Shown: one piece after another, positions 28,154 through 55,485 of the stretch
How positions within the stretch are numbered: position 1 is the stretch's first letter
Layout of the letters: each line of letters begins with the position of its first letter
Origin: Chloroflexota bacterium
Lineage (GTDB): Bacteria > Chloroflexota > Anaerolineae > Aggregatilineales > J027
Assembly: GCA_016234595.1 (NCBI GenBank)
Contig: JACRBG010000047.1
Span: 1,269 to 65,268, forward strand
Direction of reading: 5' to 3'
Length of the DNA stretch: 64,000 bases
The notes under the pieces: generated by a model
Told to the model about the DNA's origin: nothing
The model's input: the letters and a program-made list of their open reading frames with translations, nothing else
Databases searched by the model: none
Position numbers and translations under genes: made by a program

Positions 28154-30394
28154 ATGAATCCAAATCTTGCTGGACAAGTTATTGATAACTATCAACTGAT
28201 TGAAGTAATGGGGCGCGGGGGCATGGCGGTGGTCTATCGTGCCCGCCAACTCAATATCGAGCGTAATGTCGCCGTCAAGGTCATGTCCGCGGCACTAGCA
28301 GGCAGTCCCGATTTTATCGCCCGTTTCAAGCGCGAAGCCGACTTAATCGCCAAATTGGAACATCCGCATATTCTGCCCATCTATGATTATGGGCAAGTGG
28401 GTGAATATGTCTATTTGGTAGTGCGCTTGATGGAGGGCGGCAGTCTGGATCGCCGTATTCGGGGTAAACCTTTGCCCTTACCCGACATTGAAAAACTGAT
28501 GACCCAGATTGGCGGAGGACTGGATTATGCCCATCAGCATGGCATTGTGCATCGTGACCTGAAACCAAACAATGTGTTGTTGGATAATTTGGGTAATGCC
28601 TATCTGATGGACTTCGGCATCGCCAAAATTATGCAGGGTACGCAGATGACAGCGACAGGCACTATGATGGGGACACCCGCCTATATGGCCCCCGAACAAT
28701 GGAAAGCCGAAAATATTGACCAACGCGCCGATATTTACAGCTTAGGCATTATCCTCTATGAGCTTTTGACGGGTGATGTGCCCTTCCATGCTGAAACGCC
28801 GCATCAATTGATGTTTGCGCATCTTGAGAAAGAAATGCCGCGAGCCAGCCTAAAGGTTCCGGGTTTGTCGCCTATGCTCGACGAAGTTGTCTTAAAAGCG
28901 ACATCCAAGAAGCCCGAAGATCGCTATCAAAAAGCGACTGAACTAACCCAACACGTGGTCGAGGCGATTAAGGGCCAAAAAGAAGATTTACGTGGCGACT
29001 TGATTCCTTTGACGGTACGTTTGGAGCGACCACCCACTACTGAGCCTACCTCGCCACCAGCACCAGCCAAGCCTATCCCTGAGCAAGCCATGCGCACGGT
29101 GTTGGATGCCCTACCTCCAACCCAAACTCAGATGCCGCAGTATACGCCACCACCGCCAGCCACATCAATGCCGCAATATACCCCACCGCCGCAAACTGGC
29201 ATGGGTCAAATGCCGCCGCAGACGGGTATGGGGCAGGCGCCCTATCCCCCCTATCAAACTTCATATCCCCAATCGCCCACTTTTCCGCCACCAGCTGGCT
29301 ATACCATGCAGCCCGTTTATACTCCCAAGAAAAAAGGGCCGAGCGTTCTGGGGATTGTGGGAAGTCTTTTAGTGCTGCTGATTTTGTTGGGTGGGGCAGG
29401 TGGAATTATTCTCTTTGCGTTGAGCCAGAAGGATGATAAGGGCGGCAACGATAGCACTAAATCGGTTCTCGTAGACCAATCCCCTAGTCCGGCAACGGGT
29501 TCTGCCGAGGCGACGGGCGCGGCAACTGAGGGTGGTACACCAGAAAATACTGCGACGGCTACTCAAACAGCGACCAACACGGCAACCGCCACCCCCGAAA
29601 CGCCACAAATTGCGGATGTGCCTGTCTTGACTGCCCAATCGCCTATGATTTGTCCGGATACTATGATTAGCCAACTCTCAGTTGGAATGCACGCCCGTAC
29701 GACCTTAATTGGGAGAGGCACCACCAACGTTCGGACTAACCCCGATGGAGATATCACGACTGGTATTGCAAATGGGACGGAATTTAATGTCATAGGCGGG
29801 CCAGATTGCACGGGTGGACGTTTTACGTGGTGGCAGGTTCAACTGAAAGATGGCACTAAGGGTTGGGTGGCCGAAGGCGAGAATAACTATTTTGTTGAGC
29901 CGTGGCCCACAGTGGATATGACTGCCGGGGTGTTGCAAGTGGTGGACGGCATCACCAGTATTCAGGTGAGATCAGAAGCCACTGAATCATCTGAGACGGT
30001 CGCTACCCTGTTTCCGGGTGATCGTGTTAGCTGGGCTGGCACATTGGAACAAGACGGTGATTATCGGTGGGCCAAAGTGACCACCTATGACAATTCGGAA
30101 GGCTATATTCTCTTTGATGGCAATTTTGTCCGCCAAGTTGATCCTCGTGAAGTCACTGCGGGTATATTTGTCAGCAAGACGGTCGAGGTCATGCCGCCCG
30201 GTGATGGAGCCAACCTGCGCCAAACTTTTGATACTGCTTCTACGCGCGTTCAAACCGTAGATAAGGGAACCAAGATGGAGGTGATTGGTGGGCCAGAATA
30301 TGCCGATTATTTTGTGTGGTGGCAAGTCCGCCTTGAAGACGGTACGGAAGGTTGGATCGCCGACCATCCTGACTGGTTTGAGGTCGCCCAATAA
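28154..30394 (+). CDS. Membrane Hanks-type Ser/Thr kinase with Pro-rich linker, one TM helix and three extracellular SH3b-like domains
   Basis: The kinase core looks closely similar to the upstream kinase by eye (identity not computed). TM VLGIVGSLLVLLILLGGAGGIILFAL. Three repeats ending WWQVQLKDGTKGWVAEG, YRWAKVTTYDNSEGYILFDG and VWWQVRLEDGTEGWIADH. Confidence 0.9.
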   Translation: MNPNLAGQVIDNYQLIEVMGRGGMAVVYRARQLNIERNVAVKVMSAALAGSPDFIARFKREADLIAKLEHPHILPIYDYGQVGEYVYLVVRLMEGGSLDRRIRGKPLPLPDIEKLMTQIGGGLDYAHQHGIVHRDLKPNNVLLDNLGNAYLMDFGIAKIMQGTQMTATGTMMGTPAYMAPEQWKAENIDQRADIYSLGIILYELLTGDVPFHAETPHQLMFAHLEKEMPRASLKVPGLSPMLDEVVLKATSKKPEDRYQKATELTQHVVEAIKGQKEDLRGDLIPLTVRLERPPTTEPTSPPAPAKPIPEQAMRTVLDALPPTQTQMPQYTPPPPATSMPQYTPPPQTGMGQMPPQTGMGQAPYPPYQTSYPQSPTFPPPAGYTMQPVYTPKKKGPSVLGIVGSLLVLLILLGGAGGIILFALSQKDDKGGNDSTKSVLVDQSPSPATGSAEATGAATEGGTPENTATATQTATNTATATPETPQIADVPVLTAQSPMICPDTMISQLSVGMHARTTLIGRGTTNVRTNPDGDITTGIANGTEFNVIGGPDCTGGRFTWWQVQLKDGTKGWVAEGENNYFVEPWPTVDMTAGVLQVVDGITSIQVRSEATESSETVATLFPGDRVSWAGTLEQDGDYRWAKVTTYDNSEGYILFDGNFVRQVDPREVTAGIFVSKTVEVMPPGDGANLRQTFDTASTRVQTVDKGTKMEVIGGPEYADYFVWWQVRLEDGTEGWIADHPDWFEVAQ
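29132..29242 (+). repeat. Imperfect in-frame tandem repeats in the kinase linker (MPQYTPPP x2, 36-nt period; TGMGQ x2)
   Basis: ATGCCGCAGTATACGCCACCACCGCC at 29132 and ATGCCGCAATATACCCCACCGCCGCA at 29168, followed by ACTGGCATGGGTCAA... and ACGGGTATGGGGCAG... Confidence 0.6.
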
Positions 30395-30401
30395 TTTCGC
30401 T

Positions 30402-30432
30402 AAGGGCGGTTGTTAAAAAATCGCCCTTTTAT
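30402..30432 (+). terminator. Candidate rho-independent terminator after the second kinase gene
   Basis: AAGGGCG (30402-30408) pairs with CGCCCTT (30422-30428), 13-nt loop, followed by TTAT. The U-run is short. Confidence 0.45.
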
Positions 30433-30452
30433 CAAAGAATAATGATGCCCAC

Positions 30453-31727
30453 ATGAGTATTTCAGAATCGCTTGATACCACCCAGCCCTCAGATATTCCG
30501 CCGCAGAAACCCTCTTCAGTTTTATCAGACGGACTCCCCGTGCCAGATGAATCCCATAAGGAAAAATTTCGCCAGATTGTCGAACCCCATATGGCGATTG
30601 AGGAGGACGATTTGGCGCTGGCTCCCGCCGCCAAACGCACGGCATTAGTGTTTCGGGGCAAGTTGCTCCAGCCCGCATCGGAGGTCTATCCTCTTTTAAG
30701 TGAAAAAATTGAGGCACAGGGATACACCCTATTTTTGCAACGGGGCGCTAAAAAAAAGGATGAAGTGTTAATTGTGGAGGGGCAAGTTCTCCAACGCAAC
30801 ATCAAAACCCGCTGGTGGTTTCATCTTGGTTTGTTATTGGTGACGATTTTGACTACGCTGGCTGCTGGCGCGACTTTTGTAGGCTATGATCTCACCTCTA
30901 TGCGGGCTGCTGTGGGTGATTGGAACACTGTGACCCTGCGCGAAATGTATCATGGTGGACGACAATTTGCTTTTCCACTTCTGCTGATTCTCGGTGTGCA
31001 CGAAATGGGTCATTATGTTGCGGCGCGACTGCATAAGGTCAAAGTCACTCTGCCCTTTTTTATCCCTTTGCCACTGTCAGGAATAGTGCCCTTATCACTT
31101 GGCACGATGGGGGCAGTGATTTTTATTACCAGCCCATTTAAAAATCGCAAAATGTTGTTTGATGTGGGGTTGGCGGGGCCGCTAGCGGGATTGCTGGTGG
31201 CAATTCCTTTGTTCATCACCGGGCTAAAAACCCAACCAACCATCGGGATTCCACTGGAATGGCTGCAACAATTACATATAGACCGAGTTAGTGTTCCAGC
31301 GTTTTTACAATGGATGGCCCGCACGGTTTATGATGAACATCAAGTTTCACTTATTGACCGCACGGTATTTTTCCGTCACCCTCAGGCGCTGGCGGCATGG
31401 TTCGGAACTTTATTGACCTTCCTAAATTTGCTCCCGCTCGGCCAATTTGACGGCGGGCATGTCGCTTTTGCCTTGTTTGGGAGGCGAGTCGCATGGCCCC
31501 TAGCATTTTCGGTGGCCGCGATATGTGTCATGCTTGGTTTAATGGGCTATTGGTCGGCATGGCTGATTTGGCCGCTGTTTGCCTTGTTAACAGGTTTGCG
31601 TCACCCCCCACCGCATGATGATATTACGCCATTGGGCTGGCCGCGCATGATTCTAGGTGGCATCACCATTGCTTTGTTTTTTAGCTTGATTGTGATTACT
31701 CCGTTTTATAGCTCAATCACCCGCTAA
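30453..31727 (+). CDS. M50-family site-2 protease (intramembrane zinc metalloprotease) with about 115-aa cytoplasmic N-terminal extension
   Basis: HEMGHYVAARLH (HExxH) in a TM helix and NLLPLGQFDGGHV (NxxPxxxxDG). Confidence 0.85.
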   Translation: MSISESLDTTQPSDIPPQKPSSVLSDGLPVPDESHKEKFRQIVEPHMAIEEDDLALAPAAKRTALVFRGKLLQPASEVYPLLSEKIEAQGYTLFLQRGAKKKDEVLIVEGQVLQRNIKTRWWFHLGLLLVTILTTLAAGATFVGYDLTSMRAAVGDWNTVTLREMYHGGRQFAFPLLLILGVHEMGHYVAARLHKVKVTLPFFIPLPLSGIVPLSLGTMGAVIFITSPFKNRKMLFDVGLAGPLAGLLVAIPLFITGLKTQPTIGIPLEWLQQLHIDRVSVPAFLQWMARTVYDEHQVSLIDRTVFFRHPQALAAWFGTLLTFLNLLPLGQFDGGHVAFALFGRRVAWPLAFSVAAICVMLGLMGYWSAWLIWPLFALLTGLRHPPPHDDITPLGWPRMILGGITIALFFSLIVITPFYSSITR

Positions 31728-37378: not shown

Positions 37379-37711
37379 TTAACTATGGATGGCAGCGTCT
37401 AGGGTTGGGTAGACATGGAAGAATTTATCGAAGCCGATGATTTCTAGTACACGCATAATTTTGAGGTTGGGGGCGGCCAATTGTACATCTCCACCGCTTT
37501 GACGGCATTGCGTCAACACGTCGGCTAAAATGCGTAATCCGGCACTGTTTAAATAATTCGTTTGAGAAAGATCGAGTACCAACTGGTGATGTCCGGCGTT
37601 GACGACACTACGAAGAATATCTTCCATCTTGGTCGCGCCGTCGCCATCCACGCGGCCATCCACTTGAAAAACTATTTTGTCACCCTGCTGTGATTGTGAG
37701 ATGTTGAGCAT
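37379..37711 (-). CDS. STAS-domain anti-sigma-factor antagonist (SpoIIAA-like)
   Basis: 110 aa. LVLDLSQTNYLNSAGLRILADVL contains the conserved phosphorylatable Ser context. C-terminus VLEIIGFDKFFHVYPTLDAA. Confidence 0.85.
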   Translation of the reverse strand: MLNISQSQQGDKIVFQVDGRVDGDGATKMEDILRSVVNAGHHQLVLDLSQTNYLNSAGLRILADVLTQCRQSGGDVQLAAPNLKIMRVLEIIGFDKFFHVYPTLDAAIHS

Positions 37712-51594: not shown

Positions 51595-52074
51595 TTAACC
51601 CTGACCACGCTTCCGCATTTCGCGGTCTTGAATCTCTTTGAGTTTCTTGACCTCTTTGATTTTTTTCTGGCGAATCTTGTCCCGTTTTTTCTCATATTTG
51701 CGAATCGCTTTGGGGTCGTTTTTGGTTGGGGGCAGAACAGCCTCTTCTTTACTCGCAAAGTCTCCACCGAGGGCCGTTGCAACAATCATGCCGGAAATGC
51801 CCAATAAAATAATCCCCAAAAACCCCGCTATAGCCAAGTCAAGACGACTGTAGCTGTTACCAGCAAATTCTAATACCTCATTTTGCTTTAGTTCAGTTTC
51901 GGCAACACGCTGGTTGAATTTTTCATTTTTATCTTTGGCAGTCTCCACGATTAGCGGGGCCGCCAAAAATGAAATCACCGAGATCGAGATGACTAATACA
52001 AGGGCGATAATGGGTACAAGACGACTGCGTTTTTTAAGTTTTTCCTTCTCAGCTTCACGGCGGGCAACACTCAT
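51595..52074 (-). CDS. Hypothetical two-TM membrane protein with Lys/Glu-rich termini, embedded in the Mo-hydroxylase operon
   Basis: ATGA overlap with the upstream FAD/FeS gene and 26-nt gap to the large-subunit gene. TMs LVPIIALVLVISISVISFLAAPLIV and LAIAGFLGIILLGISGMIVATAL. C-terminus KKRDKIRQKKIKEVKKLKEIQDREMRKRG. Confidence 0.6.
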   Translation of the reverse strand: MSVARREAEKEKLKKRSRLVPIIALVLVISISVISFLAAPLIVETAKDKNEKFNQRVAETELKQNEVLEFAGNSYSRLDLAIAGFLGIILLGISGMIVATALGGDFASKEEAVLPPTKNDPKAIRKYEKKRDKIRQKKIKEVKKLKEIQDREMRKRGQG

Positions 52075-53513: not shown

Positions 53514-53633
53514 GTAGTTCCCTAAGCCATTTTGCAGTAAAAGGTCGCAAATGCGGCAAGTACGCTAATGTTAGCACATCCAGCAGTCTGTTGCGAAAGA
53601 ATTTGTAAGGTTTTGTGGCGGGCTGCATTCCAT

Positions 53634-53639
53634 TATAAT
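53634..53639 (+). promoter_or_regulatory. Candidate -10 box (TATAAT) upstream of the PrsW::cNMP gene
   Basis: TATAAT at 53634-53639, 31 nt upstream of ATG 53671, within the palindromic ATTATAAT. Weak -35 (TTTTGT, 17-nt spacer). Confidence 0.3.
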
Positions 53640-53670
53640 CTAACTAACGATCCTATCTCGAAAGCGCGGC

Positions 53671-55485
53671 ATGAATTTTTCAACGCTTATCGCCTATTTA
53701 ATTGCCATTGCCATCCCGACTCTCACCATTTACCTGTTCTACGCTTTTGATTTGTATGGCACAGGTAGAATTAGCACGGTCTTGGTAAGTTTTGGCTGGG
53801 GGGTGGTCGGCGCTTTTGGCATTGCGAACCTGACCTATCGGTTATTGCTGGGGGGTATTGAATTTACCCAATTAACCACCTTGTTCGCCCCGACGCTTGA
53901 GGAAATGCTGAAGTCGTTCGTTCTCATCTATCTCGTTTTTCAACCACGCTTCCGCTATATCGTGGATGGCACAATTTATGGGATTGCTGTCGGCATTGGT
54001 TTTGCTATGTCCGAAACGGCCTTTATTTATTTGCCGGATGCCGGCAACGCCGCCCTTTCCACCGCGATCAGCCGCGTACTTTCAACCTCCTTGATGCACG
54101 CAACCGCTAGTGCCATGGTCGGGATTATGTTCGGACGCTATCGGCGGGCGACCAGTCAAAATAAACGCCTGTTTCCTTTTATGGGGCTTGTACTGGCTAT
54201 TCTTGTTCATACCATTTACAACGTCGGCCTGACCCAAATTGAAGATTATAGTGCTGGACGATTTTTGCTCCTATTTGCCATTACCTTAGGTTTTTCGGGC
54301 AGTGCTTTAATTGCTTTGGTGATGAATCAAGGCCTCCAAGAAGAAAAGCGCCGCTTTGAACAAACGCTCGGTTTAGATGTTGGGGTTTCTGAGGGTGAAC
54401 GTAAGGCTGTTCAGCGACTTGGCGGTAATGGTATTGAGCAGATTTTGAATGAGATGAAAGAGTTTTTTGGGCAGGAAAATATTGCCCTCATCCGTCGCTT
54501 GCTGGTTGTTCAAGCCAATATGGGAATATTGCAGAATAATCTCAAAAGCCAAGTCAGTGATCGCCTAAAACGGGCTTGGCAGGAAGAAATTGCCGAATAT
54601 CAGCGCGAAAATGATGAAATCCGTACTCAGTTGGGTGTGTATGTCACCAGTTTTATGCGGCGCGTGTTTCCGGCTGAAGATCAAACATTATGGGATACGG
54701 TCAATTCTGAGCTTGCCAATTACGACCCTACATTGGTGCATACCTTTGATATGTTTATGCGCGTTTCCGAATTGGCCGAAACCTTTACGGTTGACCAGTT
54801 GTCCGCGATGGCTGAGCGCCTGAGCCATATGGAAATTTTCCGGAATGTCTCCCTCACCAATCTCGAAAACCTGTGTCGGGCCATTGTGGTCGAAAACTAT
54901 TCGGATGGATCGGTGATTTTTGATCTAGGGGACATGGGCGATTCAATGTATATGATTGAAAGCGGGCGTATCAATGCCTATTTGACATCGAATAAGGACA
55001 GCGAAGAAAAATTTCTACGGAGTTTTCGGGCTGGCGATGTGGTTGGTGAATTTTCCTTACTGGATGGTCAACCCCGTTCAGCGCGGGCTTTGGCAATGGG
55101 CGATGTCAAAGTGCTGGTACTCCAACGTCAGGCTTTTATGATGTTCGTGCAAAGTCGTCCCCAAGTCGTCCTAGCTATGTTGCAATATCTGGCCGATAAA
55201 TTGCGCTACACTACCGCCTCGGTGGAGGCCAGCACCAGTTGGGCCACCCGCATTGCACAGGGCAATTATGATGACCCTTATATTTTTAATCCCCCGGTTT
55301 CCAATTTGCCTGTGCCGGATGATCCTCCGCCTGCCCTCGAACCGAATGATCTTTCGGAAGATACTCCGGTGATTATTGGTGCATTATTGGTACGGGCAGC
55401 GAGTGTTTTGAAAGAACGTGAACGGACACTACGCAAACGCATTAGTGATACATGGAAGCGTGTGACCATCAACGAACAAACATGA
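53671..55485 (+). CDS. PrsW-family intramembrane protease domain fused to a cyclic-nucleotide-binding (CAP_ED) domain
   Basis: N-terminal roughly 7 TM helices with APTLEEMLKSF (EE motif), LMHATASAMVG and LVHTIYN. C-terminal aa 383-515 FRNVSL...GDSMYMIESGRI...GEFSLLDGQPRSARALA (intact phosphate-binding cassette). Confidence 0.8.
   Translation: MNFSTLIAYLIAIAIPTLTIYLFYAFDLYGTGRISTVLVSFGWGVVGAFGIANLTYRLLLGGIEFTQLTTLFAPTLEEMLKSFVLIYLVFQPRFRYIVDGTIYGIAVGIGFAMSETAFIYLPDAGNAALSTAISRVLSTSLMHATASAMVGIMFGRYRRATSQNKRLFPFMGLVLAILVHTIYNVGLTQIEDYSAGRFLLLFAITLGFSGSALIALVMNQGLQEEKRRFEQTLGLDVGVSEGERKAVQRLGGNGIEQILNEMKEFFGQENIALIRRLLVVQANMGILQNNLKSQVSDRLKRAWQEEIAEYQRENDEIRTQLGVYVTSFMRRVFPAEDQTLWDTVNSELANYDPTLVHTFDMFMRVSELAETFTVDQLSAMAERLSHMEIFRNVSLTNLENLCRAIVVENYSDGSVIFDLGDMGDSMYMIESGRINAYLTSNKDSEEKFLRSFRAGDVVGEFSLLDGQPRSARALAMGDVKVLVLQRQAFMMFVQSRPQVVLAMLQYLADKLRYTTASVEASTSWATRIAQGNYDDPYIFNPPVSNLPVPDDPPPALEPNDLSEDTPVIIGALLVRAASVLKERERTLRKRISDTWKRVTINEQT

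Follow-up and report, generated by a model that had tools for sequence, protein, structure and literature searches.

Domain organization of the protein

The window analysed here, a 64,000-nucleotide stretch of contig JACRBG010000047.1 from a Chloroflexota bacterium (assembly GCA_016234595.1), carries on its forward strand a complete open reading frame (ORF) at 53671..55485. The ORF begins with an ATG codon and encodes a protein of 604 amino acids (aa) with, in order, a PrsW domain, a middle domain, a cyclic-nucleotide (cNMP)-binding domain and a C-terminal tail. The coordinates match exactly those given in an earlier annotation of the same DNA (the sequence-only reading), and the annotated start is supported because the N-terminus aligns residue-for-residue with homolog N-termini. 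The protein is identical to NCBI MBI5931077.1 ('MAG: PrsW family intramembrane metalloprotease [Chloroflexi bacterium]'), and its PrsW and cNMP-binding domains had already been annotated by the Joint Genome Institute (JGI) and NCBI.

Residues 1-220 (53671..54330; this and all features of the gene below are on the forward strand) form a PrsW-family intramembrane protease domain with seven transmembrane (TM) helices. Over aa 35-196 the protein fits the Pfam model PF13367 (PrsW-protease) with E=2.6e-25 and 89.6 bits, where the cutoff is 23.5. The motifs of Bacillus subtilis PrsW are E75E76xxK79, F110xxxE114, H138 and H175xxxD/N179 (PMC12943098), and we located the corresponding residues and counted their conservation over 63 family sequences. 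The first motif, E77-E78-x-x-K81 (53899..53913), is equivalent to E75E76xxK79, with both glutamates in 63/63 sequences and the lysine in 62/63. The remaining three, F111-x-x-x-E115-(N/T) (54001..54018), LMH143ATAS (54091..54111) and H180-x-x-x-N184 (54208..54222), retain F111, E115, H143, H180 and N184 in 63/63. The sequence-only reading had recognized a PrsW signature in APTLEEMLKSF (E77, E78), LMHATASAMVG (H143) and LVHTIYN (H180, N184); all three are present, the Pfam match lies above threshold, and F111xxxE115 adds a fourth motif beyond those it quoted.

An AlphaFold model built on a 96-sequence alignment (mean predicted local distance difference test score (pLDDT) 84; predicted template-modelling score (pTM) 0.51) contains long helices at 3-26, 34-59, 65-89, 97-123, 125-159, 163-191 and 196-233, with pLDDT mostly 85-98. 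These seven helices coincide with seven hydropathy peaks, in agreement with the earlier estimate of about seven TM helices, and together model and hydropathy place the four motifs in the middle-to-outer part of TM helices 3-6. Loops 27-33, 90-96, 157-165 and the residues from 221 onwards hold 9 lysines and arginines, whereas the alternate loops hold 1; given this bias, the topology is N-out/C-in and residues after 220 are cytoplasmic. Helix 7 extends into the cytoplasm as a single helix in the model. A profile search for a solved relative of the membrane domain found none, and Foldseek against the Protein Data Bank (PDB) gave matches to the cNMP domain only. The NCBIfam model NF033739, the B. 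subtilis-type PrsW equivalog now named 'glutamic-type intramembrane protease PrsW', aligned over its positions 8-198 of 210 and scored 63 bits against a cutoff of 225; because this score is far under the equivalog cutoff, the protein is placed in the PrsW family and not among the orthologs. As judged from its sequence, the membrane domain is an intact PrsW-type protease domain (MEROPS M82, CPBP superfamily) and is predicted to be active.

A conserved PrsW-associated middle domain

After the membrane domain, on the cytoplasmic side, aa 221-392 (54331..54846) form a conserved helical domain that lacks a family assignment. Its invariant residues are K226, F229, E243, G251, R275, N283, G285, L287, N290, R298, W303, R318, D352, F359, D360 and F362. 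Against Pfam it gave nothing except one sub-threshold match, and a profile search found no relative in the PDB. Only 157 clusters among 1.84 billion representatives are matched by a profile of this domain. In each complete match whose domains were checked, it stands directly after a PrsW domain, and it is followed by the cNMP domain, or else the protein is about 375 aa long and holds only the first ~130 residues of the middle domain. The sequence-only reading had described this region as a helical linker of about 160 aa; its helical character stands, but a conserved PrsW-associated domain with many invariant residues is more than a linker, and we infer that aa 221-392 form a PrsW-specific coupling domain.

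Around aa 260-330 the full-length model reaches pLDDT 84-94, whereas the middle domain modelled alone reaches 58, and the isolated model was left out of the fold search. The juxtamembrane segment at aa 233-252 (LGLDVGVSEGERKAVQRLGG, 54367..54426) is conserved in sequence and has pLDDT below 50. Two of its residues, E243 and G251, are invariant; conservation is at least 90% for Q248 and L250 and, in a 33-sequence alignment, also for L233, V239, R244 and A246.

The nucleotide-binding domain and C-terminal tail

The cNMP-binding domain, including its C-helix, spans aa 393-530 (54847..55260). Pfam PF00027 (cNMP_binding) matches aa 408-495 (E=1.3e-19, 70.3 bits against 27.5). A phmmer search returned structures of the regulatory subunit of protein kinase A (PKA-R), protein kinase G (PKG) and CRP with E values of 1e-20 to 1e-12, lowest for PKA-R and PKG. 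Foldseek matched CRP, GlxR and Clr with probability 1.0 and a root-mean-square deviation (rmsd) of 1.8-2.3 Å over ~140 residues. The phosphate-binding cassette GEFSLLDGQPRSA (aa 459-471, G459-E460-FSLLDGQP-R469-S470-A471; 55045..55083) corresponds in the alignment to the GE...R[AST]A cassette found in PKA-R and PKG. The domain and cassette, which the sequence-only reading had called canonical and intact, are therefore as described, with PF00027 above threshold and G459, E460, R469, S470 and A471 all in place.

Cassette conservation was counted over 62 sequences: the glycine occurs in 62/62, the second position is Glu in 48 and Asp in 13, the arginine is kept in 60/62, and the serine and the alanine are each kept in 61/62. 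The arginine is lost in the two most divergent members (L062 and L063). Because the topology is N-out/C-in, the domain is cytoplasmic.

A variable, poorly conserved proline-rich spacer (aa 533-564, 55267..55362; pLDDT 53-65) leads to a C-terminal helix (aa 565-603, 55363..55479), modelled as such and conserved, which is hydrophobic and then basic. The tail pattern TP...F.R.A..L..RE is common to the window protein and to stand-alone cNMP-binding proteins of related loci. We rejected a CRP/FNR-like transcription factor as an identity for the protein: no helix-turn-helix (HTH) family matched after the cNMP domain, and the CRP model covers the protein only over model positions 14-137. Weak NCBIfam matches to FNR, FixK and NtcA were also recorded.

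Family distribution, paralogs and variants

The window protein has matches in at least 210 clusters (90% identity), the best 120 of which all contain both domains. A one-genome-per-species scan located 67 family loci; the count of sigma-linked loci below is given over 63. The family is nearly confined to Chloroflexota (Anaerolineae, Aggregatilineales, Ardenticatenia, Phototrophicaceae). Two metagenome-assembled records carry other names: L057 (JAHHHY010000001.1, 1.02 Mb) that of a cyanobacterium, Pleurocapsa minor, and L032 that of a Firmicute, Oceanobacillus sp.; both have a typical Anaerolineae gene order and are probably cases of mis-binning or mislabelling.

Orthologs of the window gene at 85-87% identity occur in five genomes (L001-L005). 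All five of these sister genomes also encode, on another contig, a second, sigma-linked paralog that is 47-48% identical (ortholog/paralog pairs L001/L028, L002/L025, L003/L054, L004/L026 and L005/L024). In a neighbour-joining tree the window clade is nested among sigma-linked clades, and the window copy is an orphan paralog, with no partner genes in 64 kb.

The domain combination varies across the family. Split forms (L068:612-2475 and L071:1021-2997) consist of a 377-379-aa protein with the PrsW and middle domains followed by a separate cNMP gene, which carries the C-terminal tail motifs of the fusion protein. Since fusion and split forms both exist, the cNMP module appears functionally tied to the protease. 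Other variants extend the PrsW/middle-domain/cNMP module: P0267 (1036 aa) adds PAS-GAF-HisKA-HATPase after it, and P0251 (675 aa; L069:6001-8028) adds a response-regulator receiver (REC) domain and is preceded by genes for a FecR-like protein and a CHASE2 histidine kinase. Fusion to REC or to a PAS-GAF-histidine kinase places the module in signalling. From the sequences compared, the family is under clear evolutionary constraint.

Gene neighbourhoods of relatives

We called ORFs around all family loci and clustered them to find recurrent partners. A gene for an extracytoplasmic function (ECF) sigma factor lies upstream on the same strand in about 20 of the 63 loci, from several clades. The linked sigma factors match the Pfam Sigma70_r2, r4_2 and ECF models and TIGR02937 (97.6 bits), with no specific equivalog. 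Between the sigma and protease genes lies a gene that we call c4. In at least 17 loci c4 overlaps or abuts the sigma gene, starting between -4 and +13 nt relative to its stop codon. The c4 product has 140-155 aa and two TM helices, which are preceded by a conserved N-terminal helix (LDDELAxLTDA), joined by an outside loop of 15-20 aa with a conserved L-x-G-T-A-x-G, and followed by a basic C-terminus. On the strength of its position, its translational coupling to the sigma gene and its topology, and of nothing else, c4 is a candidate anti-sigma factor.

In about 12 of the sigma-linked loci, the gene just upstream encodes a protein of ~1050 aa in which a STAND ATPase comes after two class III cyclase domains. 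Aligned with human soluble adenylyl cyclase (sAC; E=2e-20), the two cyclase domains match its C1 and C2 in that order and share with it the motifs LKFAGDALLA-W and EYTV-G--VNLAARLM, and on these grounds we regard the protein as an sAC-like adenylate cyclase. This linked cyclase, in relatives, is solely what favours cyclic AMP (cAMP) as the most likely, predicted ligand of the family. In most of the distant loci a stand-alone cNMP-binding protein of ~200 aa is encoded directly downstream, with post-domain motifs and a C-terminal helix as in the fusion protein. The cyclase- and sigma-linked clade has Asp for the cassette Glu (position 460) in the fused domain, whereas the adjacent stand-alone cNMP protein retains Glu.

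The complete arrangement is a five-gene array (L027:5543-12427) of sAC-like cyclase-STAND protein, ECF sigma factor, c4, PrsW-cNMP protein and stand-alone cNMP protein. It also occurs in L033, L044, L045, L048, L050 and others, often with a ParA-like ATPase next, and the sigma/cyclase/cNMP gene neighbourhood is kept at 40-50% protein identity. The ParA-like ATPase and a ~120-aa protein, c17, are recurrent downstream of the protease gene. c17 (L046:12274-12648) had no match in Pfam, is homologous to a C-terminal extension of P0104 (aa 611-705), P0071 and P0112 (BLASTP E=1e-8), and by eye looks like a winged helix.

A further clade, of nine loci, has a different upstream partner: a DUF2207 membrane protein, then c14 immediately upstream of the protease gene (L011:9452-9964). 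c14 has 170 aa, two N-terminal TM helices and a sub-threshold zinc-ribbon match (E=0.0013), and its cytoplasmic region looks winged-helix-like by eye. On sequence features, c14 is possibly a membrane-tethered regulator and as such a candidate transcription factor substrate.

By eye we also saw a dyad, GCGGCAC-N17-CGAC(T/A), ~20-60 nt before the ECF sigma start in L021, L027, L032, L033, L035, L043, L044, L045, L048, L050 and L057. It may represent an autoregulated promoter of the linked sigma group.

Gene neighbourhood of the window copy

Upstream of the window gene, across a divergent intergenic (promoter) region of 157 bp identified by sequence reading (53514..53670), lies a xanthine-dehydrogenase-type operon, comprising a FAD/2Fe-2S fusion, a 159-aa protein with two TM helices and a Mo subunit. 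A consensus scan of 53514..53670 found no sigma-70-like site on the forward strand. We also rejected an ECF promoter shared with the relatives for the window gene: the dyad is absent, and the window count of 19 against 12.8 ± 3.6 is not above chance. Downstream and convergent are an M24 peptidase gene and then genes for PIG-L and an Opp-type ABC transporter.

The gene for the 159-aa protein (51595-52074, reverse strand) overlaps the stop of the FAD/2Fe-2S subunit gene. The protein has highly basic termini and no Pfam match, and it is kept only in L001-L005 at 72-80% identity, which is below that of its neighbours. Its topology recalls the c4 and c14 hairpin proteins, to neither of which it is homologous.

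The sequence-only reading had noted that the window also encodes an M50 site-2 protease (S2P) and a STAS protein. Both genes exist. The M50 protein has 424 aa (30453-31727, forward strand), of which only aa 172-364 match M50, and the STAS gene at 37379-37711 (reverse strand) was confirmed. As pathway partners we rejected both, as they lie 22 and 16 kb away from the protease gene, are unlinked to it in relatives and neither has a sigma or anti-sigma gene among its neighbours. None of the 67 related loci has an S2P gene within 10 kb of the protease gene. S2P proteases are, to our knowledge, near-universal in bacteria; being unlinked as well, the window S2P provides no specific evidence. The surroundings of the two genes encode a Ser/Thr kinase, GCS2, an M23 peptidase, a DUF4397 protein and TGT. 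At 28154-31727 the M50 protease directly follows a Ser/Thr protein kinase that contains three SH3_3 repeats, and adjoining the STAS gene are genes for a 623-aa protein with five DUF4397 repeats and an unassigned 361-aa protein.

Proposed mechanism and alternatives

We favour, with moderate confidence, the view that the gene encodes an active PrsW-family protease under cytoplasmic control by a cyclic nucleotide, most likely cAMP, with a small membrane-tethered regulator as its substrate. A cyclic nucleotide would bind the cytoplasmic CRP/PKA-type domain, and the signal would pass through the middle domain and TM7 and open or close substrate access, much as the C-linker joins the cNMP domain to the pore in CNG and HCN channels. 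Among the small membrane-tethered regulators that could serve as substrate, the best candidate in relatives is the two-TM hairpin c4. If c4 were cut in or close to its short outside loop, its removal would begin and the sigma factor would be freed, with cAMP supplied by the sAC-like cyclase-STAND protein encoded upstream. For linked members, a route from cAMP to ECF sigma would be the most economical interpretation of a gene order that runs cyclase, sigma factor, two-TM protein, protease-sensor and sensor. Because no partner genes lie within 64 kb, the orphan copy in the window would act in trans on a c4-like protein of the sigma-linked paralog, or on a different substrate.

Several observations weigh against this proposal. 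The NF033739 score excludes the window protein as an ortholog of B. subtilis PrsW, and because pTM is 0.51, the model does not fix the placement of the domains relative to one another. The sigma gene was not seen in about two-thirds of family loci, and c4 matched no known anti-sigma family in Pfam and no structure in the PDB. The Asp that replaces the cassette Glu in the cyclase-linked clade may, to judge from sequence, weaken nucleotide binding there. In the 64-kb window we found no homolog of the linked sigma factor, c4, the cyclase, c14 or c17, and the dyad is absent from the region upstream of the gene. Window synteny was rejected as functional context, the neighbours being kept only beside the 85-87% identical orthologs in L001-L005. 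A full-text literature search turned up no experiments on an intramembrane protease controlled by a cyclic nucleotide.

The sequence-only reading had envisaged a cNMP-gated site-1 protease acting on an anti-sigma factor. Relatives lend this idea support (sigma factor and c4 in about 20 of 63 loci, cyclase in about 12), and the window itself lends none.

It is conceivable, though we think it rather doubtful, that the Anaerolineae family constitutes a complete and undescribed pathway from cyclic nucleotide through intramembrane proteolysis to an alternative sigma factor, with the orphan copy as a second cAMP-responsive protease acting in trans. The sAC-like cyclase-STAND protein would then make cAMP for the PrsW-fused sensor and possibly for the stand-alone cNMP protein, which would dock on the PrsW-specific middle domain; the protease would cut the outside loop or a TM helix of a new type of anti-sigma factor, the two-TM hairpin, so that the ECF sigma factor is released, and the orphan copy would target the same or another membrane-tethered regulator.

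An alternative in which the PrsW domain cuts its own chain, for example at aa 233-252, and so releases the middle-domain/cNMP module as the signalling output seems unlikely to us. In the variants, such self-processing would also release a winged HTH (wHTH)-like, REC or kinase module, in parallel with the proposal for PrsW-toxin fusions. Autoproteolytic release of PrsW-fused domains was indeed proposed by Zhang et al. 2012 (PMC3482391), but the same authors set signalling-domain fusions apart from toxin-processing ones. In favour of self-processing are the low pLDDT (under 50) of segment 233-252 despite its conservation, the output-like C-terminal modules of the variants (the c17-homologous wHTH-like extension, REC and histidine kinase), and a separately encoded, soluble cNMP paralog that shares the C-terminal tail. 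However, the catalytic residues sit mid-to-outer membrane and the segment is cytoplasmic, PrsW-middle-domain proteins with nothing to release occur, and the window protein has no recognizable output domain after its cNMP domain.

We give similarly little credence to a general role in membrane-protein turnover or envelope maintenance, in which the nucleotide domain would tune the orphan copy to physiological state with no sigma pathway involved. CPBP-superfamily members have diverse non-signalling roles, no regulatory partner lies near the window copy, and the sigma gene is absent from most family loci. Yet in two independent clades the gene immediately upstream encodes a small, putative membrane-tethered regulator, signalling domains are fused to the module in variants, and the conservation of the sigma, cyclase and cNMP neighbourhood at 40-50% protein identity likewise speaks against such a role.

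The remaining option, that the cNMP-like domain senses another ligand, in the manner of CRP/FNR members sensing haem, Fe-S clusters or other molecules, or only dimerizes or binds a partner while the protease is constitutive or otherwise regulated, is improbable: many CRP/FNR-superfamily domains do bind non-nucleotide ligands, and the weak FNR, FixK and NtcA matches, the cassette Asp in 13 members, the arginine lost in L062 and L063 and the lack of a cyclase gene in the window fit it, but the window protein has the full G-E...R-S-A cassette that nearly all members retain, its best sequence matches are true cAMP/cGMP binders, and about 12 loci carry an adenylate cyclase gene in physical linkage.

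Relation to known systems

Our preferred reading, a PrsW-family protease controlled by a cytoplasmic cyclic nucleotide, has its closest reference in B. subtilis PrsW (YpdC), the site-1 protease of the anti-sigma-W factor RsiW; Clostridioides difficile also has a PrsW. The membrane domain is homologous over nearly the whole profile (NF033739 positions 8-198 of 210), with the same four motifs at almost the same numbering, and relatives of the window gene are linked to an ECF sigma factor and a membrane protein in the anti-sigma position. Unlike B. subtilis PrsW, the window protein has ~385 extra cytoplasmic residues (middle domain, cNMP domain and tail), and its presumed input is a cytoplasmic second messenger and not an envelope signal. 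The candidate substrate c4, a two-TM hairpin with a ~15-20-aa loop, is unrelated to RsiW.

The cNMP domain shares its fold and phosphate-binding cassette with CRP, GlxR, Clr and PKA regulatory subunits, but is tethered to a membrane protease and has neither a DNA-binding HTH nor a kinase-inhibitor segment. CNG, HCN and AKT1-type channels likewise combine a membrane effector, a helical linker domain and a C-terminal cytoplasmic cNMP domain. This likeness is an analogy only, as the membrane domains are unrelated, whole-chain TM-scores are ~0.2 with rmsd above 22 Å, and the Foldseek match arises through the cNMP domain.

PrsW domains fused to PilZ, cyclic-nucleotide-binding, FHA and Zn-ribbon domains have been noted in several bacteria and were predicted to be 'signaling peptidases' that cleave proteins when the fused domain senses a signal (Zhang et al. 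2012, Biol Direct 7:18, PMC3482391). The window protein falls in this class of PrsW-signalling-domain fusions. An in-silico analysis of the Leptospira PrsW-PilZ protein LIC_20173 describes a parallel case with cyclic di-GMP (c-di-GMP; Pathogens 2026;15:151). These accounts, a single sentence in the 2012 paper and an in-silico study, report no experiment and leave undescribed the Chloroflexota family, its middle domain and split forms, and the sigma/two-TM/cyclase neighbourhood, of which our full-text search found no description either. The view in the sequence-only reading that such a protease had not been characterized thus holds for experimental work, but the fusion itself had already been noted (Zhang et al. 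2012, PMC3482391).

Significance

The window gene is an ordinary, already annotated member of an uncharacterized variant of a known protease family, and the gain from this copy, an orphan with no visible substrate, is the smaller one. The family-level operon is the more interesting result. Activation of PrsW-type site-1 proteases is poorly understood, even in Bacillus, and a version with a defined small-molecule sensor would offer a ligand-controllable model for the gating of an intramembrane protease. If gene order in the relatives is a true guide to how their operons work, these would provide the first link of cAMP signalling to regulated proteolysis of an anti-sigma factor, together with a new type of anti-sigma factor, the two-TM hairpin, and a new PrsW-specific coupling domain.

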